This document shows positions 2 through 31,711 of a stretch of DNA of 32,457 bases, piece after piece (positions within the stretch are counted from its first letter, which is position 1; every line of letters starts with the position of its first letter). Source of the DNA: an uncultured Thermoanaerobaculia bacterium (GTDB taxonomy: Bacteria; Acidobacteriota; Thermoanaerobaculia; Thermoanaerobaculales; Sulfomarinibacteraceae). The stretch covers positions 1 to 32,457 of the forward strand of contig CAYPBC010000002.1 of the NCBI GenBank assembly GCA_964408845.1, read 5' to 3'. Position numbers and translations under genes: made by a program. The notes under the pieces are model-generated. The model saw nothing but the letters and a program-made list of their open reading frames with translations, was not told the DNA's origin and ran no database searches.

Positions 2-709
2 GTATCGGACATGCAGTGGGACGATGACGTTACCGTTGAAGGCGCGATGGAGGAGCTGTCCTTCGGACCGTTGAAGCTTGACCTCTACCAGTACATCCTC
101 GAGGAGGACAAGACAGCCAGGGACGCGTATCTTCTCGGCGGCCAGGTCTACGGGAAGTTCGGCTCCGACTCGGCCGGGAGCTTTACCGTCGGCGCGGGCT
201 ACGACGAGTGGGTGCGGCCGCAGCTGGTGGTTGATCTGACCTTGAGCGGCAAGCTCCACGGAAACCGCGTGACCAATTTGCTCGATGACGATCACCAGCT
301 CGTCAGCGATTTCCAGATTGCAAACGCCTATTTTAGGTGGACCTGGAAGAAGAACAAACGCTGGCCGGTCAAGTTCTCAGCCTACGGCTACTACAACACC
401 GGCGCCCAGGGTCTGGGCAAGGAGTACGACACCGGTTACTTCCTGCGCCTCCAGGTTGGTGATTACAAGAAGAAGGGCCAGATGATGTTCCGGGCCAGCC
501 GCTACTACTCGGAGCCCGACGCCCTCTTCTACGTCTTTGCCCAGTCGGACACGACCATGGCCTCGGATGTCGACGGCTACCGCTTTGACTTCCGTCTCGG
601 CCACGTCAAGAAGTCCTACTTCAACATCACCTGGTATCACACGAAACCGGTGTACTCCCTGTTTCCGGACATGGACCGGCTGCAGGTGGACTACATCATC
701 GTTTTTTAG
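2..709 (+). CDS. Outer-membrane beta-barrel porin, C-terminal part (5' end lies outside the window); possibly phosphate-selective
   Basis: The frame is open to the window edge. Alternating aromatic/hydrophobic strand pattern (YFRWTW, KFSAYGYY, FYVFAQ, YRFDFRL, FNITWYH). C-terminus ...DYIIVF ends in Phe, the classic OM barrel signature. Phosphate selectivity is only suggested by the neighbouring PhoU/NaPi genes. Confidence 0.5.
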   Translation, partial: VSDMQWDDDVTVEGAMEELSFGPLKLDLYQYILEEDKTARDAYLLGGQVYGKFGSDSAGSFTVGAGYDEWVRPQLVVDLTLSGKLHGNRVTNLLDDDHQLVSDFQIANAYFRWTWKKNKRWPVKFSAYGYYNTGAQGLGKEYDTGYFLRLQVGDYKKKGQMMFRASRYYSEPDALFYVFAQSDTTMASDVDGYRFDFRLGHVKKSYFNITWYHTKPVYSLFPDMDRLQVDYIIVF

Positions 710-888
710 CCTGCATTTCTCACCAATCGCCAGCTACGGCCATCGATGCATCACACCCAGCGGGTCTTCTCGTTTCGGGGTGCTCGACGTACTGTCATGT
801 CCAACGCCGCGCCCCTCAGGTCGAGAACCCCGCAGGGCGAGGCACCTCGCCGCCCTCGCCATGAAACTCGGTGAGAAATGCGGGCTGG
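707..888. repeat. Inverted-repeat-bounded ~182-bp element, copy 1 (TCTCACC family)
   Basis: Ends are TAGCCTGCATTTCTCACC (707-725) and GGTGAGAAATGCGGGCT (870-886). Internal blocks TGCTCGACGTAC and CCCTCAGGTCG are shared with 6403-6594 in reverse orientation. Confidence 0.85.
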
Positions 889-892
889 TGGA

Positions 893-1585
893 TCACTCGT
901 CGTCAGTCGGGTTGTCCAGATCACCATCCCGGAAGCCGATCCGGTCGAAGGGGTTGACGATACTCGACGCGATGTTCATCAGGTGGGCGGAGATCCGCTT
1001 CAGAAACCGAACGTAGAGTGCCGTGCTGACGGCCTCGTTGCACACGAGGTCGGGTGCCGAGCGGGCGATCAGAATATTGAGGATCTCGTCCGAACGCCGG
1101 GCGATCCACCAGTGCTCGGACATCACCTCCTTTGCCTTGTCCTCGTCGCCACCAGGAAAAGCCTCGATCAGGAGCGTGAACATCGTCTTGACGGTGGTCT
1201 CGATCTTGCGGACGTCCTCCTCGAGGCTGCCACATTCGAGTCGGCCCGGATGGTTGAGGGCGAGATCGACGATGTTCTTGGTCAGGTCGCCGATGCGCTC
1301 GATGTCGATGACGATGCTCACCAGGGCCAGGCCCGCCGCGATGTTGCGGCTCGAGCTCAGCACGAGATGAGTCAGCACCTTGCGCCGCACCTCGCGCTCG
1401 TAGGCGTTGATGAGCTGGTCCTTGGCGTAGATGTCGAGCTCAATTCGCGCATCGTCGTGCTCGCGCAGCGAGCTCGATGCGGCGAGAAACATGTCCCGGT
1501 CCGCCTCCAGCATTTCGAGTGACCGGTCATGGGCCTGCTGCAACATGTTGTCCTTGCGAAACAGCTCGAAGAATTGGTTGAGCAT
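893..1585 (-). CDS. phoU: PhoU-family phosphate signalling/transport accessory protein
   Basis: 230 aa with two PhoU-type helical repeats (…IDIERIGDLTKNIVDLA… and …FLKRISAHLMNIASSI…). Its ATG lies 3 nt after the Na/Pi transporter stop, with GAGGTGA just upstream, so the two form an operon. Confidence 0.8.
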   Translation of the reverse strand: MLNQFFELFRKDNMLQQAHDRSLEMLEADRDMFLAASSSLREHDDARIELDIYAKDQLINAYEREVRRKVLTHLVLSSSRNIAAGLALVSIVIDIERIGDLTKNIVDLALNHPGRLECGSLEEDVRKIETTVKTMFTLLIEAFPGGDEDKAKEVMSEHWWIARRSDEILNILIARSAPDLVCNEAVSTALYVRFLKRISAHLMNIASSIVNPFDRIGFRDGDLDNPTDDE

Positions 1586-1588
1586 CTT

Positions 1589-2722
1589 TCACCTCAAAAT
1601 CAGAATTGCCGCGAACGGCACGGCATAGAAAAAGACGACGATGTACGCGACAGCCAACCAGCGGTGGTCGGCGGCAATCGCTGCGAAGCTACCGGCGAGC
1701 CGGAGCGGAATCCGGCGAATCGCGGGAATCGGCCAGATCACCGCGATACCGCAGATGTTGAAGAGCATGTGGGCGAAAGCCACCGTCACAGCGCTGATCT
1801 CGCCCACCGCGAGGGCCGCGAGAATCGCCGTGATCGTGGTCCCGATGTTGGCGCCGAGAGTGTAGGGGAAGATCTGGACGAGGGTGAGAATCCCGGCCCC
1901 CGCCAACGGCACGGCGAGCGATGTCGTGATGCTGGAGGATTGCACGAAGACTGTGATGAGGAGACCAAGGAGCATAGCCCTTCCGGCATTGGCGAAGAGG
2001 GTTTGATCAAAAAACGCCTCCACGCGACCGAGGACAATCGATTTGAGGGCCACCACCAGATAGCGCAGCGATGCGGCCATGATCAACAACGCGAGAATGA
2101 GCAGAACCCACGGGTGTCCGTCCAGGGCGTGGGTCACCCCATTGACCGCGGGTTCGGTGACCATCTTGAGAGGGCTCGCAAAGGTGAGCCCGCCCATCTC
2201 CTGAAAGATCTCCGCCAGGTCGGCCGCGAGAATACCGAGGAAGTTGGTCGAAACCTGGAGCGGAAAGAGAATGATCACCGCCAAGATGTTAAAGAAGTCG
2301 TGAACCGTAGAAGCCGCGAAGGCGCGCTCGAACTCCCGCCCGTGAGAGAGGTGGCCGAGGCTGACTAGGGTGTTGGTGACCGAGGTGCCGATGTTGGCCC
2401 CCATCACGATCGGGATTGCGGTGTGGATGGGCATGGTGCCGCTGCCCACCATGGCCACCACTATCGAGGTCGTGGTCGATGACGACTGGACGAGCGTCGT
2501 CGCCAGAATACCAACAAAGAGGCCGAGGAGAGGATTTGAGGCGCTCGCGATCAGACCGTCGACGAAACCGCCCGAGAACATCTTGAACGCCTTGCCGATC
2601 AGACCGATGCTGACCAAGAAGCCGTAGAGAAGCACACCGAGAATGAAGACGCGAGCTGCGGTACTCTTCCAGGGCGACTCTCCGGTGAGCGCGTTCCTTG
2701 GTGTATTGCCACTTTCGCTCAT
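1589..2722 (-). CDS. Na+/phosphate cotransporter (NaPi-II/NptA-YjbB family)
   Basis: Duplicated NaPi-II signature QSSS(T/I)TTS (QSSSTTTSIVVAMVG and QSSSITTSLAVPLAG) in a polytopic hydrophobic protein. Start placed at ATG 2722 (GGAGG about 10 nt upstream). The longest ORF would start at 2779. Confidence 0.85.
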   Translation of the reverse strand: MSESGNTPRNALTGESPWKSTAARVFILGVLLYGFLVSIGLIGKAFKMFSGGFVDGLIASASNPLLGLFVGILATTLVQSSSTTTSIVVAMVGSGTMPIHTAIPIVMGANIGTSVTNTLVSLGHLSHGREFERAFAASTVHDFFNILAVIILFPLQVSTNFLGILAADLAEIFQEMGGLTFASPLKMVTEPAVNGVTHALDGHPWVLLILALLIMAASLRYLVVALKSIVLGRVEAFFDQTLFANAGRAMLLGLLITVFVQSSSITTSLAVPLAGAGILTLVQIFPYTLGANIGTTITAILAALAVGEISAVTVAFAHMLFNICGIAVIWPIPAIRRIPLRLAGSFAAIAADHRWLAVAYIVVFFYAVPFAAILILR

Positions 2723-2839
2723 CGATTCACAGCCTCCGTGATGCCGGTGTGTCATTTCCAGTGCCGAGCCCGCGACCACAGGATCTTAACATCACAGGTC
2801 ACTGCAGGAGATCCTGGTATGTAAGGGTACACTTCATTC

Positions 2840-3718
2840 GTGCGTATCATCGTCAACCCGGCGGCGGCTGGGGGCCGGCTCGGCAGGGAGTGGCCCGTGA
2901 CGGCCGAGCGGCTCGCCGGTCTAGGTGTGACGGCGCCAGTGGTTTTCACCGAGGCGCCGGGGCATGCCACGGAGCTTGCTGCGGCCGCGGTCGCCGATGG
3001 GGTTGCGCGGGTCGTGGTGGCCGGTGGCGACGGTACGATCTGCGAAGTGGTGGAAGGGCTCCACCGTGCCGGGGGTGGGGAGCTGGCCATCCTGCCCCTG
3101 GGAACCGGCAACGACACGGCGCGAACCCTCGGCATTCCGATCGTCCTCGAGGGAGCCGTGCGAATTCTCCACGAGGGTTGTTGCCGGCCGTTCGATCTGA
3201 TCCGGATCGGCGACCGGATGGTGTTCAACGCCATCGGGGTCGGGCTGACCGGTGACATCAACGACCGCGCGGCCAGAATCAAGTGGATTCGCGGGATCGC
3301 TGTCTATCTGATGACCGCCGTGTCCGCACTCTTCCGCTACCGGATTCAGGACGTACGGATGGTGACCGAAGGGAGCGCCTACGAGGGCTCGATGCTGATC
3401 CTCGCGGTCCACGGCGGGCCGACCACCGGCGGCGGTTTCGCCCTCACCCCCGCCGCGGTGCCAGACGACGGGCTGCTCGACGCGTGCCTGGTGGAGGAGG
3501 TCGGCCCGTTCGGGCGGCTGATGCGGTTGGCAGCCGCCATGCGGGGCCGGTTGGGGACGATGAGGGGAACCCATGAGCTGCAGGCGCCATGGCTGGAGCT
3601 TCACTTCGACGAGCCTCTGCCGGCCCATCTCGACGGCAACTCGGTGGTGCTGGAACCACCGATGGCGCGGTTCGAGGTCGTGCCGGGAGCGCTGACCGTC
3701 GTGGTGCCTGAGGGTTAG
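2840..3718 (+). CDS. Diacylglycerol/lipid kinase family protein (YegS/BmrU-like)
   Basis: GTG start. N-terminus MRIIVNPAAAGG and the GGDGT motif (VVAGGDGTICEV) are typical of the DAGK catalytic domain. 292 aa. Confidence 0.8.
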   Translation: MRIIVNPAAAGGRLGREWPVTAERLAGLGVTAPVVFTEAPGHATELAAAAVADGVARVVVAGGDGTICEVVEGLHRAGGGELAILPLGTGNDTARTLGIPIVLEGAVRILHEGCCRPFDLIRIGDRMVFNAIGVGLTGDINDRAARIKWIRGIAVYLMTAVSALFRYRIQDVRMVTEGSAYEGSMLILAVHGGPTTGGGFALTPAAVPDDGLLDACLVEEVGPFGRLMRLAAAMRGRLGTMRGTHELQAPWLELHFDEPLPAHLDGNSVVLEPPMARFEVVPGALTVVVPEG

Positions 3719-3783
3719 CCTGTAGCCAAATTCAAATGTGGTCTGGCCCGGTCACGATCGTGGGATACGCTTCCGACTTCGAA

Positions 3784-3885
3784 GCGTTTCTCTATCATCG
3801 CGCTTCCCGAGAGGATGCCAGGCACGCCGATGTGACGATGAGGACATCGTCGCATCGGGAGCCAGGCACCTCCGCCGAACGCGCC
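3784..3885. repeat. GCCAGGCAC element, copy a
   Basis: CGAGAGGATGCCAGGCACGCCGAT-[hairpin]-ATCGGGAGCCAGGCACCTCCG. The 24-nt left block is identical to the reverse complement of 22765-22788, and the flanks are also similar (CGTTTCTC). Confidence 0.85.
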
Positions 3886-3932
3886 GGCGCGCTCGTGCTC
3901 TTCCGCTTCTCCGCTCCTCTTCCTCCGCCGTT

Positions 3933-3958
3933 GTCAACGAAAATCGGGGTTGGACGTC
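3933..3958 (+). promoter_or_regulatory. Candidate ECF-type (autoregulated) promoter
   Basis: tGTCAAC-N16-CGTC resembles the AAC-N16/17-CGT architecture of many ECF promoters. It sits just upstream of the sigma gene and would put the start site between ATG 3961 and ATG 3985. Confidence 0.35.
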
Positions 3959-3984
3959 GTATGGTTGTGTTGCGAGCAGGAGCC

Positions 3985-4569
3985 ATGGACCCATCTCGAA
4001 CTGATCTTTCCCAAGAGGACGACGCGCTGGTTCTGCGGGCGCAGGACGGTGATCATGACGCTTTTGGCGAGCTGGTCACCCGCCATCAGCGACGGGTGTG
4101 GATGGTGTGCCGGCAGTATGTCGGCCAAGATGAAGCCGATGCGGCGGCCCAGGACAGTCTGGTCAAGGCCTTCACCAAGATTGATGATTTCGACCGCCAG
4201 GCTGCGTTTTCGACCTGGCTGACCCGGATCGCCATCAATACGTGCCTCGACGAGCTGCGGAAGCGGCGCCGCACGACACTGGTTTCGGACGAGCCGGAAG
4301 ACGGGGAGGGCGCCGGCATTCTCGAGCAGGTCCCGGACGACCAGGCGGGGCCGGAGGCGAGATTCATGCAGCGCCAGGCGGTGGCCTCTCTCGAAGCCGG
4401 TGAGGAGAGCCTGCCACCGCGTCAGCGTGAGATCTTCCGGCTCCGTTTCTACGCCGAGATGGAGCTCGTGGAGATCGCGACGGCGCTCGACGTCCACGTA
4501 GGGACCGTGAAGACACAGCTGCACCGGGCGGTACACCGGCTGCGCAAGGAACTGGGAGCATACCGATGA
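3985..4569 (+). CDS. ECF-type RNA polymerase sigma-70 family factor
   Basis: Region 2 (DAFGELVTRHQRRVWMVCRQYV…AQDSLVKAF…FSTWLTRIAINTCLDELRKRRR) and region 4 HTH (LPPRQREIFRLRFYAEMELVEIATALDVHVGTVKTQLHRAVHRLRKEL). Start chosen at ATG 3985 (AGGAG just upstream), because a candidate ECF promoter ends at 3958. ATG 3961 is the alternative. The 3736 ORF start is a non-homologous extension. Confidence 0.85.
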   Translation: MDPSRTDLSQEDDALVLRAQDGDHDAFGELVTRHQRRVWMVCRQYVGQDEADAAAQDSLVKAFTKIDDFDRQAAFSTWLTRIAINTCLDELRKRRRTTLVSDEPEDGEGAGILEQVPDDQAGPEARFMQRQAVASLEAGEESLPPRQREIFRLRFYAEMELVEIATALDVHVGTVKTQLHRAVHRLRKELGAYR

Positions 4570-5030
4570 AGAGCCATCTCGATGAACACGAAATCACAAC
4601 AGCGGTGTCAGGCCTCGGGCTCGAACCGGCGGCCGAGGAACACCTTGCTTCGTGTCTGAGCTGCCGCCAACAGGTGTCGTCGATGCGGGAGCTCATCGAC
4701 GCGCGACGGCAGGGTCTCGAAGCCGGGGTCCCGGACTGGGATCAACAGCGGCAAGAGGTTCTGCTGCGGCTGTCGTCGGCATCAACAGCCGGAGAGCGGT
4801 ATCGGCGATGGGTTCGTCCGTGGCTCGCGTTAGCTGCGATTCTGGTGGCGGCGATTGGGCTCAGGATGCTGTGGACACCGCCGCCGGCCGATCGTGCGAC
4901 CAATGCCGAGCTGCCCGTGGAACAGATCCTGGCCGAGGTCGACGCGGTCCTGGCCGACGATTCCATCCCGGGCTTCGAGCTCATCGAACCGGGGTTGGAC
5001 GATGCGGTTTTTGAAAACGGAACGTTGTGA
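4566..5030 (+). CDS. Zinc-binding (ZAS-type) membrane anti-sigma factor
   Basis: ATGA start/stop overlap with the sigma gene. H-x3-C-x2-C motif (HLASCLSC). Single TM segment WLALAAILVAAIGLRMLW followed by a short extracytoplasmic tail. Confidence 0.75.
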   Translation: MKSHLDEHEITTAVSGLGLEPAAEEHLASCLSCRQQVSSMRELIDARRQGLEAGVPDWDQQRQEVLLRLSSASTAGERYRRWVRPWLALAAILVAAIGLRMLWTPPPADRATNAELPVEQILAEVDAVLADDSIPGFELIEPGLDDAVFENGTL

Positions 5031-5052
5031 GGGGGCGGAAGTGGAGGCAGTC

Positions 5053-5541
5053 ATGAAGAGCATGAAAAACGTATTGATCATCATCGTGTTTCTCGCAGTG
5101 GTAGCCCCGTTGGCGGCGGACGATTTCAATCTGCCACCCGGAAAGTGGTGGGAGGACCAGCGGCTGGTGAGCCATATCGGGCTCACCGAAGAGCAGCAGG
5201 GTCAGATTCGAGAAGTGGTTTTCTTACATGCACGGCGGATGATCGATCTCAAGGCCGATGTCGAAAAGGCCGGACTCGATCTCGCAAGCTCGGTAGACCA
5301 GAAGGTTTTCGACCCTGCGCCGGTGCGGGCGGCTTATGCTGTTTTTCAGACCGCGCGCCAAAAGCTGGAGAACGAACGCTTCGAGATGTTGCTCGAGGTG
5401 CGCCTGGTACTGACCTACGAGCAGTGGCAGAAGATCGAAGAAATCAAGCGGCGAATGAAACAGAATCGGTCGGAACGCCGGCCCGGCGCCCGCGGGCAGG
5501 AGGGGCAGCGCCCACAGGGAGACCGGGCTCCTGGATTCTGA
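5053..5541 (+). CDS. Periplasmic Spy/CpxP/ZraP-like LTXXQ-motif protein
   Basis: GGAGG lies 5 nt before ATG 5053. Signal peptide MKSMKNVLIIIVFLAVVAPLAA. Two LTxxQ-type motifs (LTEEQQ, LTYEQW) in a helical, charged protein with a basic tail. Confidence 0.7.
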   Translation: MKSMKNVLIIIVFLAVVAPLAADDFNLPPGKWWEDQRLVSHIGLTEEQQGQIREVVFLHARRMIDLKADVEKAGLDLASSVDQKVFDPAPVRAAYAVFQTARQKLENERFEMLLEVRLVLTYEQWQKIEEIKRRMKQNRSERRPGARGQEGQRPQGDRAPGF

Positions 5542-5544
5542 CTG

Positions 5545-5614
5545 CAGGGCACAGGGCACAGGGCGCAGGGCATAGGGCGTCCATGTACCCTGAACCCTGA
5601 ACCCTGAACCCTGT
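5545..5614. repeat. Phased heptamer array (CAGGGCR)x5 - TCCATGT - (ACCCTGW)x4
   Basis: Ten consecutive 7-nt units read directly, starting 4 nt after the Spy-like stop. The two halves are imperfectly complementary (CAGGG/CCCTG). Confidence 0.95.
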
Positions 5615-5627
5615 GGGTGGCTTTCCA

Positions 5628-5656
5628 TTGACACCAAATGGCGTGTCTGGTACAAA
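5628..5656 (+). promoter_or_regulatory. Candidate sigma70 promoter for rplU-rpmA
   Basis: Perfect -35 TTGACA (5628-5633), a 17-nt spacer and -10 TACAAA (5651-5656). The start site would fall about 25 nt upstream of the rplU ATG, ahead of a GGGGAGAGG Shine-Dalgarno. Confidence 0.5.
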
Positions 5657-5687
5657 TACAACCCCTTTGACTGGGGAGAGGTGTCGA

Positions 5688-6011
5688 ATGAGCGATTACG
5701 CAGTAGTAGAGCATGGCGGCAAGCAGTACCGGGTGAGTCCGGGCGACGAGCTGCTGGTGGAGCGCACCCAGCCCGATCTCAAGACGGGTGACGACATGGT
5801 TTTCGAGCGGGTGATGCTGGTCAGCCAGAATGATGCTGTCCGCGTCGGAAAGCCGGTGGTTGACGGCGCGCTGGTACGGAGCAGAGTCGTGGCGTCGGTG
5901 CGTGGTGAAAAGATCATCGTTTTCAAGAAGAAGCGCCGCAAGGGATACAAGCGGAAGAACGGCCATCGGCAGGACTACTACAAGGTTCGGGTCGAGGCCA
6001 TCGAGGCGTAG
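5688..6011 (+). CDS. rplU: 50S ribosomal protein L21
   Basis: [25 protein letters not shown]… plus the basic C-terminal [16 protein letters not shown], a textbook L21 sequence. Confidence 0.95.
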
Positions 6012-6019
6012 GAGACACC

Positions 6020-6274
6020 ATGGCGCACAAAAAAGGACAGGGTTCGAGCCGAAACGGTCGCGACTCGCACGCCCAGCGTCTCGGCACCAAGGTCGGTGAC
6101 GGACAACAGGTCACGGGCGGGACCATTCTGGTTCGCCAGCGCGGTACCCATTTCAAACCTGGAAAACACGTCAAAAGGGGCGGCGACGACACCCTCTTTG
6201 CGACCTCGGCGGGCCAGGTGAAATTCCAGAACCGTGGTCGTCACGGTCGGTTCATCAGCATCGTCGTCAACTGA
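6020..6274 (+). CDS. rpmA: 50S ribosomal protein L27
   Basis: [29 protein letters not shown]…[13 protein letters not shown] is the canonical L27 N-terminus. It lies 8 nt downstream of rplU. Confidence 0.95.
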
Positions 6275-6402
6275 GAACCACTCATCACAGGTGGGACTTT
6301 CGCGCTACCCTATGACATCTCAAAACGAGGCAACGAGCGCGGCTGCGTCGCACTCCCCGTGTATGACCTAAGATGAGCGATTCTCACCTGCGATCTGCAG
6401 CA

Positions 6403-6594
6403 AGCTCTTGCCTGCATTTCTCACCACGTCACGTTGCGAGGCTCGCGAGATGCTGCGAGATGTGGCGTTTGCGACCTGAGGGCCGCGCAGTCGTACTCAA
6501 CGGTACGTCGAGCAGCCCGATGGGAGGAAACGTCGCAGATTGCTGCATATCGCGGGCCGCAGTAGGGAGGTGGTGAGAAATGCAGGCTAGAGCT
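6403..6594. repeat. Inverted-repeat-bounded ~192-bp element, copy 2 (TCTCACC family)
   Basis: 25-bp terminal inverted repeat with one mismatch: AGCTCTTGCCTGCATTTCTCACCAC (6403-6427) against GTGGTGAGAAATGCAGGCTAGAGCT (6570-6594). Confidence 0.9.
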
Positions 6595-6711
6595 CTGGCC
6601 ACGTGCGAAAATGCTCCGAACACCGATGGGTATGCGTCCGCTTTGCGCAAGCACCAGAACATCAAGATCTTGGCACATCTCTTCCGGCAGAACCGCTCAT
6701 CTTAGGTGTGA

Positions 6712-8389
<1,678 letters not shown>

Positions 8390-8393
<4 letters not shown>

Positions 8394-8773
8394 TGTCGGA
8401 CGCGAAGCGCCCCGGATCCCTGCAAACTGCTGCGCGTGCTGCCGCCGACAAAAAGGCCTTTCAAATCGTGGGTCTCGAGGTCGGCGATCTCACGTCCTAC
8501 ACCGACAGCTTGCTCATTTGCTCGGGCGCCAGCGATCGCCAGGTTGCTGCGATAGCCGGCGAGGTGCAGCGGCAGCTGAAGGATGCCGGCCGGCGACCGC
8601 TCCACGTCGAGGGCGAGTCACACGCGGACTGGGTTCTCCTCGACTATGGTGACTTTGTGGTCCACGTTTTCACAGAGGAGCGGCGCACGTATTACGGGCT
8701 GGACAATTTGTGGGGAGATGCACCAAGGCTCGAGGCCGACGATCTCGGCGTTGGTGACGCCAACGGCGCGTGA
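8390..8773 (+). CDS. rsfS: Ribosome silencing factor RsfS (iojap family)
   Basis: ATGA overlap with nadD. SYTDSLLICSGASDRQVAAIA…WVLLDYGDFVVHVFTEERRTYYGLDNLW is the conserved RsfS core. The second ATG at 8393 is an equally possible start. Confidence 0.9.
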
Positions 8774-8790
8774 GGCCGCAGCAGGCGATA

Positions 8791-8809
8791 GGAGAGAAAT
8801 GCGGGTTAG
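8791..8809. repeat. Solo right-end-type copy of the TCTCACC-family terminus
   Basis: GGAGAGAAATGCGGGTTAG compared with GGTGAGAAATGCAGGCTAG (6572-6590). It contains the rlmH SD and ATG. Confidence 0.6.
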
Positions 8810-9272
8810 CATCACGTGGTTCGGCCGTCGGCAGGCGAGTCCATATGAGGAACAGATTGAAACCTACCGGCAGCGCGTGAATAGACGTTGGAAGGCCGAG
8901 GATCGTGTCGTGCGACCCGCCGCCGGCGGGAGGGAGAAGGACTCCCATCGCGCCCTGAGGCTCGAGGCCGAGATGATGCTCCGCCACCGCGAACCGGGTT
9001 GGCGGTTGGCGGTTCTCGACGAACGGGGCAGAGGTCGGAACAGCGTTGCTTTTGCGGATTGGCTTGGGGGTCTTGAGGACCGGGGTGTCGTGGGAGTTTT
9101 CTTCGCCATCGGCAGTGACCTGGGTTTGGATCCGGAGCTTGTCGATGGGGCGGACGAGCGCCTCTCCTTGAGCCCGATGACTCTTCCCCATCTGTTGGCC
9201 CGTCTCGTGCTGTGGGAGCAACTCTATCGCGCCACCGACATTCTCTCAGGGGGCGCATACCACCGAATATGA
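8799..9272 (+). CDS. rlmH: 23S rRNA (pseudouridine1915-N3)-methyltransferase RlmH (SPOUT)
   Basis: MRVSITWFGRR…LDERGR…FAIGSDLGL…LSLSPMTLPHLLARLVLWEQLYRA matches RlmH. The start sits inside a GGAGAGAAATG repeat end. Confidence 0.85.
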   Translation: MRVSITWFGRRQASPYEEQIETYRQRVNRRWKAEDRVVRPAAGGREKDSHRALRLEAEMMLRHREPGWRLAVLDERGRGRNSVAFADWLGGLEDRGVVGVFFAIGSDLGLDPELVDGADERLSLSPMTLPHLLARLVLWEQLYRATDILSGGAYHRI

Positions 9273-9356
9273 GTCGATTCTCTTCGACTGATTTCAGGTA
9301 CAATGAGGATCCGGTCGCCGGAATCGACCGGTGGCGACCGAGCGGAGGATCGACCG

Positions 9357-9710
9357 ATGAACAAGAGACAGCGCGAAAGATATCGCAAGCAACTGTTGGC
9401 GAAGCGGGAAGACCTCCTTCATCTCGTACAGGCGGCACGCAGCAGTGAAAAAGAAGGTACCGGCAAAGAGGCGCCGGATCTCGGTGACCGAGCCCTATCC
9501 ACCGTCATCAGGGACCTGAGCTACCAACTGACCATCGCTGAGCGCGACCTCGTCCGAAGGGTTGACGAGGCTCTCGATCGTATGGACACGGGCGAGTACG
9601 GCGTCTGCGTCGCCTGCGGTAAGAAGGTCCAGATCGGACGCCTCGATGCCGTCCCGTGGGCCCGCCACTGCATCGAGTGCCAGGAACTGCAGGATCGTGG
9701 GGAAATCTAG
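9357..9710 (+). CDS. DksA/TraR-family C4 zinc-finger RNAP-binding factor
   Basis: GGAGGA lies 8 nt before ATG 9357. Coiled-coil with a DxxDxA tip motif (DLGDRA). CxxC-N17-CxxC (CVACGKK…HCIEC). Confidence 0.8.
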   Translation: MNKRQRERYRKQLLAKREDLLHLVQAARSSEKEGTGKEAPDLGDRALSTVIRDLSYQLTIAERDLVRRVDEALDRMDTGEYGVCVACGKKVQIGRLDAVPWARHCIECQELQDRGEI

Positions 9711-9760
9711 CCCGCATATCTCACCAGCTTCCGTCGCGAGGTCGGCGACGACCCCTCTCC
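9708..9760. repeat. Solo left-end-type fragment of the TCTCACC-family element
   Basis: TAGCCCGCATATCTCACCAGCTTCCGTCGCGAGGTCGGCGA compared with TTGCCTGCATTTCTCACCACGTCACGTTGCGAGGCTCGCGA (6408-6448). It begins at the dksA-like stop codon. Confidence 0.65.
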
Positions 9761-9770
9761 CGGCCTGAAC

Positions 9771-10960: not shown

Positions 10961-11053
10961 ACAGGGGCACGGTTCATGCGCGGGAGGGTGGGTGAAGAAT
11001 TCGAGATTCGAAATTTCTCCCTGTACCCTGAACCGTGAACCCTGTACCCTGAG
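10961..11053. repeat. Heptamer array (CCCTGWA-type x5, 11019-11053) with an upstream complementary arm (10961-10976)
   Basis: CCCTGTA CCCTGAA CCGTGAA CCCTGTA CCCTGAG. ACAGGGGCACGGTTCA (10961-10976) can pair with TGAACCGTGAACCCTGT (11029-11045). Confidence 0.9.
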
Positions 11054-12433: not shown

Positions 12434-12435
12434 CG

Positions 12436-12470
12436 TTCAGTTCTCAATTCTCAATTCTTAGTTCTCAATT
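12436..12470. repeat. Heptamer array (CTCAATT family), left arm
   Basis: TTCAGTT CTCAATT CTCAATT CTTAGTT CTCAATT, starting 3 nt after the bEBP stop. Confidence 0.95.
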
Positions 12471-14522: not shown

Positions 14523-14550
14523 CCGAGCGGGATCTGCCATACTCGATCGG

Positions 14551-21658: not shown

Positions 21659-21720
21659 TCAGTGATCATTCCATCGCACGGGATTCGGCACCGATCACCC
21701 ATGACTGATCACTGATCACT
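21647..21720. repeat. Heptamer arrays AGTAATC AGTAATC AGTGATC … TGATCAC TGATCAC (inverted pair)
   Basis: The left arm (21647-21667) contains the TAA stop of the upstream gene. The right arm (21702-21720) is its imperfect complement. Four GATC sites fall within 21664-21717. Confidence 0.9.
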
Positions 21721-21767
21721 CGCCCGAGAGGTCGAAATCTCGGTCAACGGTTATACTCGGCGCCGTC

Positions 21768-22679
21768 ATGGAGATCGTCGACGGTACCGTGATCGCAGTG
21801 CATGGCCCGCTGGTTCGGGTGCAGGTGGGCGATGACACCCTCGTAGTGGCGTCGCGGCGGCGACTCAACTGGGAGGGCGGCACCCCGTCGGCGGCCCGTT
21901 TGGTGGTAGGAGACGGTGTGACCCTGGAGATGCGGGGCGAGGACGGGGTGATCGTCGCGGTGCACGCGCGGCGCAACTCGCTTCTTCGCAAGGCGCCCAT
22001 GAAGAACCGTGCCCAGATCCTGGCAGCCAATGTCGACCAGGCGTTGCTCATCTTTGCAGCCGTGGAGCCGGAACCTAAACCAGGCCTCCTTGATCGGTTC
22101 CTCGTCGCCTGTCATCTCGCGGGTATCGAGACGGTGATCACAATCAACAAAATCGATCAGGGGCTCGACAGAGTGGAACAATGGCTCCCTGCCTATGAGG
22201 AGATGGGTTATCGGGTCCTCCGAGTTTCGGCCCGTACGGGATGGGGTCTTGGTGTCTTCAAGCGGCTCCTGGTAGATCGAACGACGCTCTTCTGCGGGCC
22301 CTCGGGCGCGGGCAAGTCGTCCCTTTTAAATGCGGTGTACCCGGGATTCCGGCTCAAGATCGGTTCGTTGTCGGAGAGCACCGGCAAGGGCCGTCACACG
22401 ACCTCGATGGCGGAGCTGATGCCGCTTCCCTACGGTGGCTTCGTGGTCGACACGCCGGGGCTCAAGGAGTTTGGAGTGTGGGATGCGACGACCGAGGAGC
22501 TCGAGGGGGCGTTCCCGGAGATCGCAGGCAAGACGGGGAGTTGCCGGTTTTCAAACTGCACGCACCAGCACGAACCGGAGTGCGCGATCCGCGAGGCGGT
22601 GGAATCAGGCGAGATCGCGGAGAGCCGGCTAAAAAGCTTTGAGAAGATCCTCAAGGAAGCGCTCGAATCGAAAAATTAG
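21768..22679 (+). CDS. rsgA: Ribosome small-subunit-dependent GTPase A
   Basis: Circularly permuted GTPase order (NKID … GPSGAGKSSLLNAV … DTPG) and a C-terminal zinc knuckle CRFSNCTHQHEPEC. Confidence 0.92.
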   Translation: MEIVDGTVIAVHGPLVRVQVGDDTLVVASRRRLNWEGGTPSAARLVVGDGVTLEMRGEDGVIVAVHARRNSLLRKAPMKNRAQILAANVDQALLIFAAVEPEPKPGLLDRFLVACHLAGIETVITINKIDQGLDRVEQWLPAYEEMGYRVLRVSARTGWGLGVFKRLLVDRTTLFCGPSGAGKSSLLNAVYPGFRLKIGSLSESTGKGRHTTSMAELMPLPYGGFVVDTPGLKEFGVWDATTEELEGAFPEIAGKTGSCRFSNCTHQHEPECAIREAVESGEIAESRLKSFEKILKEALESKN

Positions 22680-22700
22680 GAATGAGGAATTAGGAATGCC
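22673..22700. repeat. Heptamer array AATTAGG AATGAGG AATTAGG AATGCCA
   Basis: Contains the rsgA TAG stop (22677-22679). It continues into CCCACCCACC, the same junction (AATTAGGAATGCCACCC) as at 31635-31652. Confidence 0.9.
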
Positions 22701-22721
22701 ACCCACCCACCTGTGAATCGA

Positions 22722-22810
22722 GGGCGCGATCACCGGAGGTGCCTGGCATCCCGATTCGCCGCGAATCGGCGTGCCTGGCATCCTCTCGCGGCAGCGTTCT
22801 GAGAAACGGG
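22722..22810. repeat. GCCAGGCAC element, copy b (inverted relative to copy a)
   Basis: CGGAGGTGCCTGGCATCCCGATTCGCCGCGAATCGGCGTGCCTGGCATCCTCTCG. Two direct GTGCCTGGCATCC boxes flank a CGATTCGC/GCGAATCG palindrome. Confidence 0.85.
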
Positions 22811-22870
22811 TCGCGTGGAATCCGGTAGTTCGTTGCCGGGGCGCAGGCAGCGACGTCACCGCTGCTGCTT

Positions 22871-25300
22871 TCATCCCAGCGCGCGGTGCGGGGCGGCGAG
22901 GAAGCAGGCGAGGTAGCCGGCGCGGCCGCGGAGAGTGGGGAGGGGAGCGGTGATGCCCGCGTTCTCCCGGCGCAGGCCCTCGTACACCCGGGCGAGCTCG
23001 AATCGGTTGCGAAACAGCCACATTTCCATAGGCTCTCCGGGATTGATCTCCGGCGTCTGGATCGGAACCTGAATGGCATGCAGGAGTACGTCGTCGGTGT
23101 CCCTGTACTCGCCGAAGAGCCACTTTCGGGCGCCGTTCTCGAGCAGATAGGTGATGACCAGGAGGTTGTTGGCAATGGTTCCATTTACCGCAGACGTAGC
23201 TTCGTGTGAGGATTTTTCGTCCTGGGTCAATCGTCGGAGGAGGCCGATTAGGGGGCGTTCGAAGACAATCTCCTCGGCATCCCCTGGGAGCTCAGGCCAC
23301 ACCACGGCTTCAGCCAGCTCCTGTGGTGGCAGGCCCTTGAGGCGCGCGACGCCGAGGTACCGGAATCCCACATACAGGGTGTCGGGCAGACCGGGGTCCA
23401 CCGGGAGGAACGCCCAGCGGACGTTGTCAATCGCCACCATCGAGAGCTTGGAAATATCGATCTCGAGCTCGAGTTCTTCAATGAACGGCAGGGCGACGAC
23501 AATGCCCTCGTTGACGAGTTCGCCGTGGTTGTCGAGCGTGGCCGCATAAGGTCGGGTAGAGATTTCTTCGTTACCGCTCCGAGCCGAAACCAGAGGTGAC
23601 AAGAAAAGGTCAACCTCGGTCGTGTCATAACCGGAGTGAATGAGAAACTCGGCGATGTCGGAGATTTCGCGGGTGCTCTTGCCGGTGGTGAGTCTGGCGA
23701 GCTCGACGATGCCGTGACCAAAGAACTCGAAGCGCTTGGCCTCGGGACCCGGATGGAGCATCGGTAGGAGACGAAAAACACCGTAGTTCACCGCGATCCG
23801 GATACCGTGGTTGAACGGGAAACCGACACCTCGTAGCTGTTCGTAAACATGTTGGATCTCACATGCGGCGGCAATCACTCGCAGGGCGCGGCGCGAGGTG
23901 TAGAAGGCGCCGTCGCCAAGGAATTTCTCGAAGGTGAGACGCCGGCGACGTCTGATCGCCTCGAGACGATTTTGGAAAATATACATGAACTGGAGCGCCC
24001 GTTCCTCGGCCATGCGGCCGGCCTTGCGGACCTCTTCGAGGACGGTCGTGAAGTTCGACAGATCATAGATCAGCCCGAAACGGCGGATCGAGGAGTCGAC
24101 CACTCCCGGAGCGGTGAAGTCATACGGGCGTGAGGTCTTGGCGATCGGAGTCGCGGAGGAAGGGCCGGCCAACACCAGGGTCGTGCCGTGTCGCTGCATG
24201 GGCAGGATCCGTCGCCTGAGGGCTGCGAGCAGCTCGAAGGTCTTGAGACGCAGACCAAGATCCCGAAGGAGGTCCATCTGGACCCTCGAGAGATGGATGG
24301 TGTCGGCGAGACCGGACGAGTGGATCGCATCAAGAAGACGAGGTTCAAGCAGGGCCTCCGGCCTATCGAGCTTGAGGCTCGATCCGACGGCGATACCGAG
24401 GAGACTACCCACCGCGGGTTGGCTGGAAACAAGGTCGCGGAGGCGTTCGAGCACCTCGCGGTTGGCGGTTTCCACCGCATCAGCCCTTTGTCGGAATTGC
24501 GCCTGAAGATAACCGCTGAGCTGTGATAGTTGATTCGGGGGACGGGACTCCACGAGCAGGAGCTGATCTCGGCAGATAATGCCCAAAAGGGGCGTGACGG
24601 TGGGAGTTACCTGGACCTCTGCAAGCTTACGGAGATGGTCGACGGCCGTGAGGGCTGCGCGCCGGAGGAGATCCGCGATAATGGTTGCGATGCTCTGGCG
24701 GTAGTCGTCGGTCCCCGGTGGTCGACGGCCGCCACGGGATATGGGTGGGGATTTCGGCACCTTCGACAGGGCGCGGCACACCTCTCCCGAGTGGAAGAGC
24801 AGGAAGAGATCGACCAGACCCCGGTGGTAATCGTTCATGAAGACATTCTCGAGGGTTGCAGAGATAGACTTGTGGTAGTGCTCCCGTTGCACCATCATCC
24901 GCTGTTTGTCATCCTCGTTGCCGGTCTGTGGTTGAGTTCGGTACTCCATTTCCGCCCTGATCAGACCGTCGAGGTTCCGTCGCAGCTTGAGAACCCCATC
25001 CGAGAGCAGGACCGGATATCCCCAGGTCACGACCCTCTCTTCGTCGCGACCGAAGATTGGAAAGGGAGCCGGGAGAAAGGTTGCGAGCGCAGGGAAGATG
25101 TCGCACCACCCTCCCTCAACCTCCTCCGGGGTGAGATAGACTGGGTGCTTCAGATCCTCCTGGAGGACCTGGCGAAAGGCCTCCATGGATTTTTCGTCGC
25201 GTCTCATCCCTCCATTGTAACGGGTGAGTCGCTCCAATCGGAACAGGAGATTTCGCCGCAACGACTGTTGGGTGATTGGACAACAAACCGGGAATGTCAT
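22871..25300 (-). CDS. Large hypothetical protein with a central, divergent class III nucleotidyl-cyclase-like (CHD) domain
   Basis: aa ~405-545 (nt ~23666-24088) align by eye to the CHD motif series: FGLIYDLSNFT (cf. FADIxGFT), EKFLGDGAFY (cf. KxIGDxxM), IRIAVNYGVF (cf. RIGIHxGxV) and FFGHGIVELARL (cf. xGDxVNxAARL). I do not recognise the ~400-aa N-terminal or ~260-aa C-terminal regions. The start is uncertain; internal Met codons lie at 25207 and 25186. Confidence 0.7.
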   Translation of the reverse strand: MTFPVCCPITQQSLRRNLLFRLERLTRYNGGMRRDEKSMEAFRQVLQEDLKHPVYLTPEEVEGGWCDIFPALATFLPAPFPIFGRDEERVVTWGYPVLLSDGVLKLRRNLDGLIRAEMEYRTQPQTGNEDDKQRMMVQREHYHKSISATLENVFMNDYHRGLVDLFLLFHSGEVCRALSKVPKSPPISRGGRRPPGTDDYRQSIATIIADLLRRAALTAVDHLRKLAEVQVTPTVTPLLGIICRDQLLLVESRPPNQLSQLSGYLQAQFRQRADAVETANREVLERLRDLVSSQPAVGSLLGIAVGSSLKLDRPEALLEPRLLDAIHSSGLADTIHLSRVQMDLLRDLGLRLKTFELLAALRRRILPMQRHGTTLVLAGPSSATPIAKTSRPYDFTAPGVVDSSIRRFGLIYDLSNFTTVLEEVRKAGRMAEERALQFMYIFQNRLEAIRRRRRLTFEKFLGDGAFYTSRRALRVIAAACEIQHVYEQLRGVGFPFNHGIRIAVNYGVFRLLPMLHPGPEAKRFEFFGHGIVELARLTTGKSTREISDIAEFLIHSGYDTTEVDLFLSPLVSARSGNEEISTRPYAATLDNHGELVNEGIVVALPFIEELELEIDISKLSMVAIDNVRWAFLPVDPGLPDTLYVGFRYLGVARLKGLPPQELAEAVVWPELPGDAEEIVFERPLIGLLRRLTQDEKSSHEATSAVNGTIANNLLVITYLLENGARKWLFGEYRDTDDVLLHAIQVPIQTPEINPGEPMEMWLFRNRFELARVYEGLRRENAGITAPLPTLRGRAGYLACFLAAPHRALG

Positions 25301-30406: not shown

Positions 30407-30417
30407 CACGGATGCGA

Positions 30418-30533
30418 CAGGGTACAGGGCACAGGGCACAGGGTGCAGGGCGCAAGGCACAGGGCACAGGGCGCACTTGACACCCTGCCCAGAGCGATTG
30501 GCGTTTTTGCTGAACCCTGAACCCTGAACCCTG
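30418..30533. repeat. Heptamer arrays (CAGGGYR)x8 … (TGAACCC)x3 between convergent genes
   Basis: Eight units at 30418-30473, a 37-nt spacer (CACTTGACACCCTGCCCAGAGCGATTGGCGTTTTTGC), then three units at 30511-30531, ending 3 nt before the mnmA stop. Same family as 5545-5614. Confidence 0.95.
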
Positions 30534-30536
30534 CAT

Positions 30537-31595
30537 CTACTCGATCAACCCTCCACCCAGACACTCTTCACCGTCATATAACGCCGCAAACTGGCCGGGT
30601 GCGATCCCGGGATCCGCGGTGGCATCGAACTGAACCACCATTGATCCGTCGGCGCCATCCGAGATCGTGCAGGTCTCGATTCTTTCGCCGTGGCGGATTC
30701 GCACCTGGAGATCGGATCGGGTGGGCGGTTCAGCGACCCAGTGAGGGTTGGGGATGACGAAGCTCGACCGGGTGTGATTGGCGAGCGAGTCGGCGTGGAC
30801 CACAAAGACCACGTTCTGTTCGATGTCCTTTCCAACCACGTACCATGGGCCGCCGCTCAAACCGAGGCCGCGGCGCTGGCCGATAGTGTGAAACCAGGTG
30901 CCCCGGTGATGGCCGAGGACCCGACCGCTGTCTGCTTCACAGATCGTTCCGGGACGTTCTCCCAGGTGGTGGCACACGAAATCGTTGAAGGGGATTCGCC
31001 CGAGGAAGCAGATCCCCTGACTGTCGGGACGGTCGGCATTGACCAAAGACAAACGGCGGGCCTCTGCCCGCACCCCGGGCTTGGTGAGGTGGCCTATCGG
31101 AAAGAGGCAGCGCGCCAGCTGTTCCTGCCGGAGCTGGCACAGGAAGTAGGTCTGATCCTTCTTCGGGTCCGCCCCCCGCATGAGGCGTACGAGGCCCTCG
31201 CGGAACGTCACCCGGGCATGGTGCCCAGACGCGATGAGATCGAAGCGGTCGCCGACCCGATCGACAAATGCGCCGAACTTGATCATCCGATTGCACATCA
31301 CATCAGGGCTCGGGGTGTGTCCGACCGCGAGCTCATCCAGGGCGTAGGCGATCACCGTGTTGAAGTACTCCTGCTGCAGCGACACCACTTCGAGCGGCAC
31401 GCTGGCGGCGCCGCATACCTCACGCACGATTTTGAGGTCCTCCTCCCAGGGACATGATCCGAGGAAAGCCATCTCGTCCTCGAGCCAGATCTTGAGGTAG
31501 AACGCTGTTAGCTCGTGCCCACCCTCCTCGGCAAGCTGCATTAACGCCACCGACGAATCCACACCACCTGACACGAGGACAGCAACACGGTTCAT
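30537..31595 (-). CDS. mnmA: tRNA 2-thiouridine(34) synthase
   Basis: PP-loop VAVLVSGGVDSSVA and conserved MnmA core motifs (…CNR.IKF…, …GICF…). 352 aa. Confidence 0.92.
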   Translation of the reverse strand: MNRVAVLVSGGVDSSVALMQLAEEGGHELTAFYLKIWLEDEMAFLGSCPWEEDLKIVREVCGAASVPLEVVSLQQEYFNTVIAYALDELAVGHTPSPDVMCNRMIKFGAFVDRVGDRFDLIASGHHARVTFREGLVRLMRGADPKKDQTYFLCQLRQEQLARCLFPIGHLTKPGVRAEARRLSLVNADRPDSQGICFLGRIPFNDFVCHHLGERPGTICEADSGRVLGHHRGTWFHTIGQRRGLGLSGGPWYVVGKDIEQNVVFVVHADSLANHTRSSFVIPNPHWVAEPPTRSDLQVRIRHGERIETCTISDGADGSMVVQFDATADPGIAPGQFAALYDGEECLGGGLIE

Positions 31596-31613
31596 TGAGG
31601 CAGGATACTGGTT

Positions 31614-31711
31614 GAATTAGGAATTAGGAATTAGGAATTAGGAATGCCACCCGCCCTCCCAGAGAACGGGGGTGGGTGGAAGGGGATCAAAAATTGAGAA
31701 TTGAGAATTGG
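31614..31711. repeat. (GAATTAG)x4 - GC-rich hairpin - (AATTGAG)x2 composite
   Basis: Heptamers at 31614-31641. Stem CCACCCGCCC (31647-31656) pairs with GGGTGGGTGG (31670-79), including one G-T pair. AATTGAG units at 31692-31705. The composite fills the gap between the zinc-ribbon gene and mnmA. Confidence 0.9.

Follow-up and report, generated by a model that had tools for sequence, protein, structure and literature searches.

The stretch of DNA analysed here, hereafter the window, comprises 32,457 nt (positions 1 to 32,457 of contig CAYPBC010000002.1, assembly GCA_964408845.1) from an uncultured Thermoanaerobaculia bacterium of the Acidobacteriota, and its intergenic gaps carry tandem arrays of 7-nt units. 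These arrays are hypermutable, non-coding heptamer simple sequence repeats (SSRs), present throughout the lineage, with a polarity, a length optimum, co-variation of the paired arms and conservation of position; of this description we are highly confident. They are heptanucleotide long simple sequence repeats (LSSRs), similar in the broad sense to short tandemly repeated repetitive (STRR) sequences: tandem, dispersed, mainly intergenic and changing in copy number by whole units. Many of them are the arms of a polar module, in the order (unit)n, a C-motif (C)CRCCCACCC, a spacer mostly of 27-60 nt (up to about 100 nt), a G-motif GGGTGGGYGG and (reverse-complement unit)n; relative to the genes, the stop codon comes first and the next gene last. 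The explanation that we favour, with moderate confidence, is that these hypermutable LSSR/STRR-type microsatellites form the arms of a palindromic gene-boundary module that acts through its structure. Any specific function of the modules as boundary structures is proposed tentatively.

The window was searched with Tandem Repeats Finder (TRF) and with our own lag scan (at least 3 copies, at least 85% lag identity), and 300 dinucleotide-preserving shuffles served as the null model. The lag scan returned 13 merged period-7 arrays against a shuffle mean of 0.18 (maximum 2), nearly all of them in non-coding sequence, and TRF recovered the period-7 arrays that a first-pass annotation of the window had listed. 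Lag 7 alone was enriched; lags 4-6 and 8-12 were all at chance in the window. The gaps of at least 55 nt (n = 13, 1,967 nt, about 6% of the window) held 10 arrays, compared to 0.009 expected. TRF reported twelve intergenic period-7 arrays, and a coding, probably chance, match at 8997-9014. Heptamer arrays are present in seven gaps, including two arrays straddling stop codons; the first-pass annotation spoke of six such gaps and listed seven, which is the correct number. Its count of repeats of any kind in 13 of 16 gaps holds in so far as most gaps contain them; the exact tally depends on gene starts and is here about 11-13 of 13-15. The sites, with the twelve TRF arrays, are the following.

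5545-5613: inverted array pair (TRF), CAGGGCA x 4.9 at 5545-5578 and ACCCTGA x 3.9 at 5587-5613; begins 3 nt past the stop codon of gene 4855-5541, upstream of rplU; the G-rich arm has at least four GGG runs.
10982-11052: half module, G-motif GGGAGGGTGGGTG at 10982-10994, a degenerate GAATTCG/AGATTCG/AAATTTC array at 10997-11017 and CCCTGAA x 4.9 at 11019-11052; ends 7 nt before the start, at 11060, of a sigma-54 activator gene.
12437-12603: full module, TCAATTC x 5 at 12437-12471, a spacer of about 100 nt ending in GGGTGGGC at 12565-12572, and ATTGAGA x 4.4 at 12573-12603; fills the gap of convergent genes, one array starting 3 nt from the stop codon beside it and the other 0 nt from the opposite stop.
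21647-21720: inverted pair (TRF) with polymorphic unit number, AGTAATC x 3.1 at 21647-21668 and CACTGAT x 4.6 at 21689-21720; the first unit of the 21647 array holds the TAA stop (21656-58) of gene 18134-21658.
22674-22711, + strand: half module, a GAATTAG/GAATGAG array x 3.6 at 22674-22698, followed directly by C-motif CCACCCACCCACC at 22699-22711; the rsgA TAG stop (22677-79) lies inside the array, which has no partner arm and no stable fold.
30417-30533: inverted pair between convergent genes, ACAGGGC x 8 at 30417-30472 and CTGAACC x 3.4 at 30510-30533; the most polymorphic site of the window.
31614-31710: full module upstream of mnmA, GAATTAG x 4.6 at 31614-31645, C-motif CCACCCGCCCTCCC at 31647-31660, a loop, G-motif GGGGGTGGGTGG at 31668-31679 and AATTGAG x 2.7 at 31692-31710.

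The shared junction sequences pointed out in the first-pass annotation were confirmed: AATTAGGAATGCCACCC and GGGTGGGCATTGAGAATT recur between sites, 22674-22711 being 92% identical to 31622-31659, and 12555-12597 matching 31668-31710. So was the contact with stop codons, since in addition to the two stops embedded in the arrays at 21647 and 22674, other arrays begin 0-3 nt from the stops at 12433, 12604 and 30537.

Next to the mnmA module itself, two observations concern the orientation of its arms. The mnmA-distal arm (31692-31710) is of the AATTCTC type on the mnmA strand, a near-direct repeat of the other arm, and a relative of 88% identity (L006, 3349-3456) carries a complementary GAATTAG-type arm at the corresponding place. 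This suggests, from the sequences compared, an inversion or replacement of the arm around its palindromic AATT core.

The comparison set consisted of the window and 28 further Thermoanaerobaculia loci (29 loci, 486 kb), sampled around mnmA; labels of the form L0xx denote single contigs or loci. The best matches of the MnmA protein were metagenome-assembled genomes (MAGs) of Thermoanaerobaculales and Candidatus Sulfomarinibacter(aceae), with 88-63% identity, and the window DNA recurs in marine-sediment and cold-seep metagenomes. TRF found 128 period-7 arrays in the 486 kb, and 7 was the commonest TRF period in almost every Thermoanaerobaculia locus. The first-pass annotation had considered that such arrays might be no more frequent than chance, a local oddity or an assembly artefact; their density is 2.64 per 10 kb in the relatives and 0.06 per 10 kb in the high-GC controls (1 array in 172 kb of eleven loci), with 0.32 per 10 kb over all 52 controls. 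Gaps were mapped with a codon log-likelihood gene caller, which still makes false open reading frames (ORFs) over long arrays: 104 of the 128 arrays fell in called gaps, which make up about 10% of the sequence, and most of the 16 arrays called as coding are ORF artefacts over the arrays themselves. Words from the arrays reached depths of 1,200-10,000 in sediment runs, compared to roughly 5-65 for the flanking single-copy sequence, and contigs end at the arrays. At the mnmA module (31614-31710) the depth spiked to 1,200-4,500, against about 8-60 in the flanking bins, and words of (ACCCTGA)n, the unit of the second arm at 5545-5613, had depths of 7,000-10,000 in two runs, of which one is labelled as RNA and the other has no recorded type. 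The density in relatives, together with the high depth of the array words, indicates that the pattern is lineage-wide and neither an oddity of this window nor an assembly artefact, an origin also ruled out by the presence of the same arrays in ENA, NCBI and Logan assemblies made independently from different samples. CRISPR arrays were ruled out by the period of 7 and the lack of spacers.

One control locus from the Candidate Phyla Radiation (L043, Candidatus Peregrinibacteria, 34% GC) contained seven period-7 arrays, at 2729-2849, 6755-6811 and 11101-11139, with units including AAAATTC x 8.4, CGATTAA x 8.1 and CGAAGAA x 5.6. Heptamer arrays may thus be enriched in further unrelated lineages.

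The polarity of the module was strict. A G-motif lay upstream of an array, at a distance of at most 25 nt, in 23 cases, and a C-motif downstream, within the same distance, in 21 cases; the opposite polarities occurred 2 and 2 times, equal to the 1.5% background. At the junction the consensus is GGAAT[T/G] or GGATTTC, directly followed by CCRCCCACCC. Among 36 neighbouring array pairs 23 were inverted, with at most one mismatch between the consensus units, and for the pairs with a spacer of at most 110 nt complementarity was found in 22 of 27, compared to 4.9 (maximum 12) under permuted partners. Since these complementary pairs extend over 17 unit types, the arms co-vary. Array length showed a sharp mode at 32-35 nt (46 of 128 arrays, about 4.7 copies, five cores), and only 2 arrays measured 36-39 nt. 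The units are AT-rich (mean 42% GC in genomes of 62-65% GC) and diverse, with 51 canonical units; across species, 53 of 130 arrays are built from one of three related units of the form N-GGA-W-TT, namely AAATCCG, AATTCCG and AATTAGG. Single-linkage clustering of the units chained 81% of them into one cluster and was uninformative. Arrays were present in 22 of 60 convergent, 42 of 140 tandem and 7 of 48 divergent gaps. Of 95 arrays, 26 begin at most 5 nt from a stop codon, and the mode of the stop-to-array distance is -2, where TGA or TAG forms part of the first unit (TGA before ATTCGGAATTCGG..., TAG before GAATTAGG...).

Single (GGATTTC)n arrays of 7 to 15 copies were observed at one orthologous site in four relatives (L016 8574-8649, L017 8539-8645, L021 9101-9147, L025 9089-9149). 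These long arrays are always followed by the conserved sequence CAAACTGCTAC; they are outliers to the 32-35 nt mode, and those of L017 and L025 were mistaken for coding sequence.

Array dynamics were followed within the species on 13 metagenome contigs from other samples, which encode an identical MnmA, RsgA or sigma-54 activator. An alignment of 46.9 kb to these contigs contained 87 substitutions, together with 13 indel calls that correspond to about four independent events, and all 13 indel calls were multiples of 7 located inside arrays, which bears out the slippage hot spots suggested in the first-pass annotation. The alleles at 30417-30533 were 8+3 units in the window, 5+5 in L001 and 5+6 in L002 and L003; the 21647 array carried 7 additional nt (AGTAATG) in four conspecific contigs; and independent runs showed +7 at 21646 (X2), -7 at 21704 (X1) and -21 at 30425 (X2), so that the indels seen in contigs and runs all measure 7, 14 or 21 nt. 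Four other modules of the window were invariant between conspecific contigs, among them 12437-12603 (four contigs) and 31614-31710 (five contigs). Between species the sites persisted and the units changed: upstream of mnmA an array or array pair was present in 15 relatives, with units that differ by species (GAATTAG/ATTCCTA, ATTTCGG/AAATCCG, GAATTTT/AAATTCA, GAATTCG/GAATTCC), and several further syntenic sites behaved in the same way. The position of the arrays is therefore old, and their unit sequence and copy number are fluid. A phase-variation contingency locus did not fit the arrays: they lie after stop codons or in gaps, and the +7 indel at 21654 is past the stop, leaving the 1174-aa product unchanged.

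Inverted arrays folded into long stems, as the first-pass annotation had expected of many of them, with z-scores of -4 to -7 for the strongest: -4.4 (+) and -5.5 (-) for RNA of 5540-5620, -7.4 for 12430-12608 (dG -77.9 kcal/mol), -5.1 and -5.4 for 30410-30540, and -2.3 for 21640-21725. Canonical hairpin-plus-U terminators were absent from all gaps of the window, the hits being at chance (13 vs 11.3; 16 vs 10.3) and all intragenic, and the modules are consequently the only conspicuous 3'-end structures there. Near the site at 5545, a cold-seep metatranscriptomic cDNA contig (run X24) covers the 5' region of rplU of a close relative (window 5627-5767) and extends upstream into a (GGCATCC)n array, which is thus present in RNA in that relative.

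A mechanism can be outlined in which units would be gained and lost through replication slippage. Loops of 7 nt exceed the sizes that MutS handles well, and 7-nt slippage loops may escape mismatch repair; as 7 is not a multiple of 3, the arrays would survive only outside reading frames. Either selection for pairing or template switching inside the quasi-palindrome could preserve the complementarity of the arms. At gene boundaries the module would act structurally, as a long RNA stem-loop or as a DNA hairpin or cruciform; it might mark off or insulate transcription units, or else protect the ends of transcripts or process them. Because unrelated units fill the same architecture and the same orthologous sites, pairing and length seem to be maintained and not the unit sequence, and this maintenance points to a structural role. 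A more specific version, which is possible and which we hold to be rather unlikely, is that the arrays are the adjustable arms of an undescribed, selectively maintained Thermoanaerobaculia gene-boundary element, composed of a polar GC clamp and two arms of about 33 nt with five cores, whose arm sequence drifts as complementarity and length hold; the resulting hairpin or cruciform, a "register-tolerant zipper", would have a reader specific to the lineage (a terminator, an insulator, an RNase or a nucleoid protein).

Several results weigh against a structural boundary module. The stems were not followed by a U-tract in any case, and the GGATTTC-type modules carry their T-rich arm 5', opposite to an intrinsic terminator. 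Of 18 tandem-context pairs, a small sample, only 6 had a sense RNA more stable than the antisense RNA (mean difference +5 kcal/mol, p = 0.07), and with no folding bias towards the sense strand a role at the RNA level on the coding strand is unsupported; a DNA-level or bidirectional role would account for the strand symmetry no less well. RNAalifold gave no consensus structure for the orthologous spacers upstream of mnmA from 9 species, because the spacers were too diverged to align. At 31614-31710 the arms are not complementary and the GC core alone pairs. In the polymorphic pair at 30417-30533 one arm gained units and the other lost them (3+8 vs 6+5), so that pairing length is not tightly held within the species, and arrays in divergent gaps were only about two-fold less frequent than in convergent or tandem gaps. 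Finally, the RNA-labelled runs, which are Logan assembled contigs with a low word share, showed no 3' ends.

The terminator role raised in the first-pass annotation was not supported in its intrinsic (Rho-independent) form: there was no U-tract, the canonical hits were intragenic and at chance with none in the gaps, and folding showed no sense-strand preference. A rut site for Rho was also rejected; the G-free, C-containing strand is the sense strand for the GGAATTA-type arrays (22674, 31614, 12437/12573), but the CAGGGCA-type arrays are G-rich in sense. A role as stop codons in three frames was discarded since AAATCCG, the commonest unit, lacks a stop triplet on both strands, and static DNA curvature was discarded since a 7-bp phasing cancels over 21 bp.

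Among the other explanations, the one that survives best, and which we nevertheless judge unlikely, is that the arrays are neutral by-products, harmless junk left by a lineage-specific replication or repair bias that makes 7-nt slippage frequent. The unit-step polymorphism between strains speaks for it, as do the non-coding restriction (which follows from 7 not being a multiple of 3), the 51 canonical unit sequences, the lack of a sense-strand folding bias, and slippage having already been proposed for heptamers generally (Mrazek 2007, as summarised in PMC4679880 and PMC4692102). However, drift predicts monotonic array lengths and not a 32-35 nt mode with a cliff at 36 nt, and it predicts neither the strict polarity beside CCRCCCACCC (44 vs 4), nor arm complementarity over 17 unit types, nor the presence of arrays at the same sites in species whose MnmA is only about 71-76% identical.

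The conserved CCRCCCACCC junction, the quantisation of length at about five cores and the share of N-GGA-W-TT units (53 of 130 arrays across species) are also what favours sequence-specific binding arrays, that is, some five sites at 7-nt spacing for a unit-reading protein, either a global regulator on double-stranded DNA or a cold-shock-domain or CsrA-like protein on single-stranded RNA, where each unit would offer a GGA. Elements of 4-5 heptamers in Geobacter are annotated as putative global regulator sites (PMC2700814), and CspB is reported to bind heptamer repeats in the discussion of PMC4679880. This explanation appears improbable: one architecture, and even one orthologous site, accommodates unrelated units (CAGGGCA, AGTAATC, GATGCTG, AAGTTGA, GGCTTGA), an array of direct binding sites would not need arms that co-vary for complementarity, and the GGA strand is not consistently the transcribed strand, for which reason a CsrA/GGA decoy was rejected as well.

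Footprints of a mobile element are less probable still. On this account a palindrome with the core CCRCCCACCC...GGGTGGGYGG, similar to repetitive extragenic palindromes (REPs), to their REPIN form or to MITEs (miniature transposable elements with inverted repeats), was spread by a transposase, and the heptamer arms are secondary. REPs, with the bacterial interspersed mosaic elements (BIMEs) and REPINs, are intergenic palindromes of enterobacteria and pseudomonads, often at 3' ends or in convergent gaps, present in hundreds of copies and hairpin-forming; each REP belongs to a conserved 20-40 nt family linked to RAYT transposases and has no tandem heptamer arms. In the modules, unlike in REPs, just the short GC core recurs and the arms are microsatellites. 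The core does recur at many sites with a fixed polarity, half modules exist, array-plus-junction words are 20-500 times deeper than the flanking bins in sediment metagenomes, the arrays supply stop codons as inserted elements often do, and contigs break at them. Against an origin by transposition, the orthologous positions are stable from one species to another, the copies are unlike in that every site has a unit and a spacer of its own, and neither core nor spacers can be aligned between species. No target-site duplications or GTAG-type signature were seen, and no transposase (RAYT included) was found among the window genes, the whole genomes not having been searched. Own units and spacers at stable orthologous positions led us to reject a MITE identity of the heptamer modules.

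G-quadruplex (G4) or i-motif elements modulating transcription or translation, as proposed for the GGGAATC repeats of Xanthomonas and with G4 formation shown in vitro for those repeats (PMC4692102, as described there), are very improbable here: the arrays of CAGGGCA and GGGTTCA units within 5545-5613 and 30417-30533 do carry 4-8 GGG runs spaced by 4 nt, to which the G-motif GGGTGGGYGG adds more, but most units (GGAATTN, GGATTTC, AGTAATC, AAGTTGA; mean GC 42%) have no G3 run, and duplex pairing competes wherever a complementary arm exists.

The STRR1-3 units of heterocystous cyanobacteria are CCCCAGT, TTGGTCA and CAACAGT. The arrays of the window are not STRRs in this strict sense, given their units (GGAATTN, GGATTTC, CAGGGCA, AGTAATC and others) and a host that is not cyanobacterial: its two sigma-54 activators exclude a cyanobacterium, and the nearest genomes are MAGs of Thermoanaerobaculia and Candidatus Sulfomarinibacter. 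Gloeobacter, considered on account of the 62% GC, was rejected on both grounds. The first-pass annotation was thus right in seeing STRR-like heptamer repeats in a non-cyanobacterial genome of about 62% GC. The cyanobacterial STRR/LSSR sequences are summarised as tandem heptanucleotides scattered over intergenic regions, each genome having several families of units (Mazel et al. 1990; Mrazek et al. 2007, via PMC4679880 and PMC4692102). The arrays described here share with them a dominant period of 7 and slippage as the proposed origin, and differ, going by those summaries, in belonging to an Acidobacteriota host with sigma-54 regulators, in their units and in their inverted pairs, which are common here (23 of 36) and rare in Nostoc.

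The further claim of the first-pass annotation, that no equivalent had been described for a high-GC non-cyanobacterial genome, is contradicted by published accounts for Xanthomonas (PMC4692102), Geobacter (PMC2700814) and Burkholderia (via PMC4679880). Heptanucleotides are summarised as the most abundant class of long SSRs in many bacteria, including Burkholderia, Xanthomonas and actinobacteria, and polymerase slippage has been proposed for them (Mrazek et al. 2007, as summarised in PMC4679880 and PMC4692102). In Xanthomonas about 185 intergenic GGGAATC arrays are described, mostly of 4 units, with 70-75 convergent inverted pairs (Rehm et al. 2015, PMC4692102); according to the same description they are rare between divergent genes, and their sites are kept between species with variable length and with the single or paired type preserved. 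Both are intergenic inverted pairs at conserved positions in a high-GC non-cyanobacterial genome (23 of 36 inverted pairs here, with recurring orthologous sites), and the commonest units of the arrays here have a GGAAT core in common with the Xanthomonas unit. In contrast to the one G-rich unit described for Xanthomonas and read there as G4-forming, the 51 canonical units found here are mostly AT-rich and mostly lack G3 runs; only the CAGGGCA/GGGTTCA arrays would qualify as such G3-containing units.

In Geobacter metallireducens, four or five heptanucleotides in tandem (GGACCGG; MTYCTGA) make up multicopy elements, some of them shown as pairs on opposite strands (Aklujkar et al. 2009, PMC2700814), and this copy number of 4-5 equals the mode observed here. 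As described in that paper, the Geobacter families differ in having one fixed consensus each, in having been found by BLAST and in having some copies within genes; the paper reads them as sites bound by regulators or as regulatory RNAs, and the description reports no polymorphism or arm co-variation. Marine Beggiatoaceae, cyanobacteria and Bacteroidetes contain abundant intergenic TAACTGA direct repeats in 2-6 copies (MacGregor 2015, PMC4679880). These also come from sediment bacteria and contain stop triplets, and their role is thought in that account to be post-transcriptional; they are described as a single unit located mostly just upstream of starts, with one inverted set, unlike the many units, the frequent inverted pairs and the position mostly abutting stops observed here. 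The oriented core, the co-varying many-unit arms, the 32-35 nt mode and the built-in stops set the modules apart from the Xanthomonas and Geobacter repeats as these are described. The kind of repeat is therefore already known (Xanthomonas, Geobacter, cyanobacteria), and what is new, against these published descriptions, is this lineage and this arrangement; among the papers searched, none links Thermoanaerobaculia or Sulfomarinibacter with tandem repeats.

Other repeats of the window fall outside the heptamer arrays listed above. They include a hexamer array and an AACGTT array, both noted in the first-pass annotation and both found by TRF, and the two families of longer elements that it had reported and that we recovered, named A and B.

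13691-13724: hexamer (YCCGTS) array, 5.7 copies with 75% match, between the manC start and the stop of a HAD gene; outside the heptamer class.
14494-14523: AACGTT array, four AACGTT cores spaced 9, 7 and 8 nt.
707-887, + strand: family A copy 1, about 180 nt with the terminal inverted repeat AGCCTGCATTTCTCACCA ... GGTGAGAAATGCGGGCT; not a heptamer array.
6403-6594, - strand: family A copy 2, about 65% identical to copy 1 internally, with near-perfect termini.
22723-22795, + strand: family B copy 1, an element of about 80 nt with a short palindrome between two GGTGCCTGGCATCC boxes.
3808-3885, - strand: family B copy 2, of which 24 nt match copy 1 at 100%; falls within the 5' part of ORF 3736-4569, probably non-coding.

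The array at 14494 is probably a degenerate heptamer array, judging from the heptamer arrays of AACGTTC and AAACGTT found in the relatives L027 and L029. The two copies of family A share near-perfect terminal inverted repeats (AGCCTGCATTTCTCACCA ... TGGTGAGAAATGCAGGCT). Family A looks MITE-like or like a structured RNA from its sequence; partial matches to its terminus occur at 9710-9726 and 8791-8807, its flank at 6363-6400 had a depth of 481 in sediment run X23, and no match to the terminus was found in the 93 loci of relatives searched. The boxes of family B bear a loose likeness to a sigma-54 -24/-12 promoter (TGGCAT-N5-TTCGC), and each copy points into a convergent gene at its 3' end. The bin 22495-22893, which holds family B copy 1 and a heptamer array, reached depths of 300-3,870 in metagenomes, indicating that some sequence there is highly multicopy.

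A conserved non-coding segment of about 100 nt, …GATTCGTAGAATCAATNGCA…CCTCC…GGCGGCCCCG-loop-CGGGGCCGTCGG, was observed downstream of mnmA in six relatives (L006 4600-4740, L012 11200-11340, L015 about 1170, L016 about 11214, L017 about 11113, L023 2400-2540) and is absent from the window. Heptamer arrays flank it in the four loci examined (L006, L012, L023, L032). It gave no Rfam match at E <= 0.01, and its sequence looks like that of an undescribed small RNA with its own terminator-like hairpin.

The genes of the window (genome GC about 62%, 62-65%) belong to housekeeping and signalling: phoU, an Na/Pi transporter, rplU, obg, rlmH, dksA, rsgA, mnmA and manC, with two sigma-54 activators, a histidine kinase and two giant TPR/transglutaminase proteins. 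These giant proteins are paralogues encoded side by side (14601-18137 and 18134-21658), each of about 1,180 aa with TPR repeats, DUF3857 and a transglutaminase-like core, and the second gene has its stop codon supplied by a heptamer unit. ORF 3736-4569 encodes an extracytoplasmic function (ECF)-type sigma-70 factor whose start is probably near 3985: the match to Pfam region 2 sets in at residue 113, 3985 is the start chosen by the codon-likelihood caller, and the family B element sits in the part upstream of it. A start at 3985 adds a non-coding gap of about 266 nt to the window. Cumulative GC skew climbs almost monotonically over positions 1-32457 and most genes are on the + strand; from the skew, the + strand is probably the leading strand throughout. 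An Rfam scan of the whole window at gathering thresholds returned no family and ARAGORN no tRNA or transfer-messenger RNA (tmRNA), so the gaps are not known RNA genes.

The arrays have practical consequences for the study of this lineage. They break short-read assemblies of abundant seafloor Acidobacteriota, whose contigs end there, and gene callers produce false ORFs across them; they could serve as markers for strain typing in metagenomes, in the manner of variable-number tandem repeats (VNTRs). Why the period is 7 and what heptamer arrays do has no accepted explanation despite the surveys of 2007, and the Thermoanaerobaculia offer a natural experiment, with many units in one architecture, a length optimum, co-varying arms, deep conservation of position and strain-level slippage. 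Taken in combination these features argue that pairing and length are maintained and not the unit sequence, which makes the function testable. If the zipper-like element outlined above is real, the same principle might explain the paired heptamer repeats of Xanthomonas and Geobacter.

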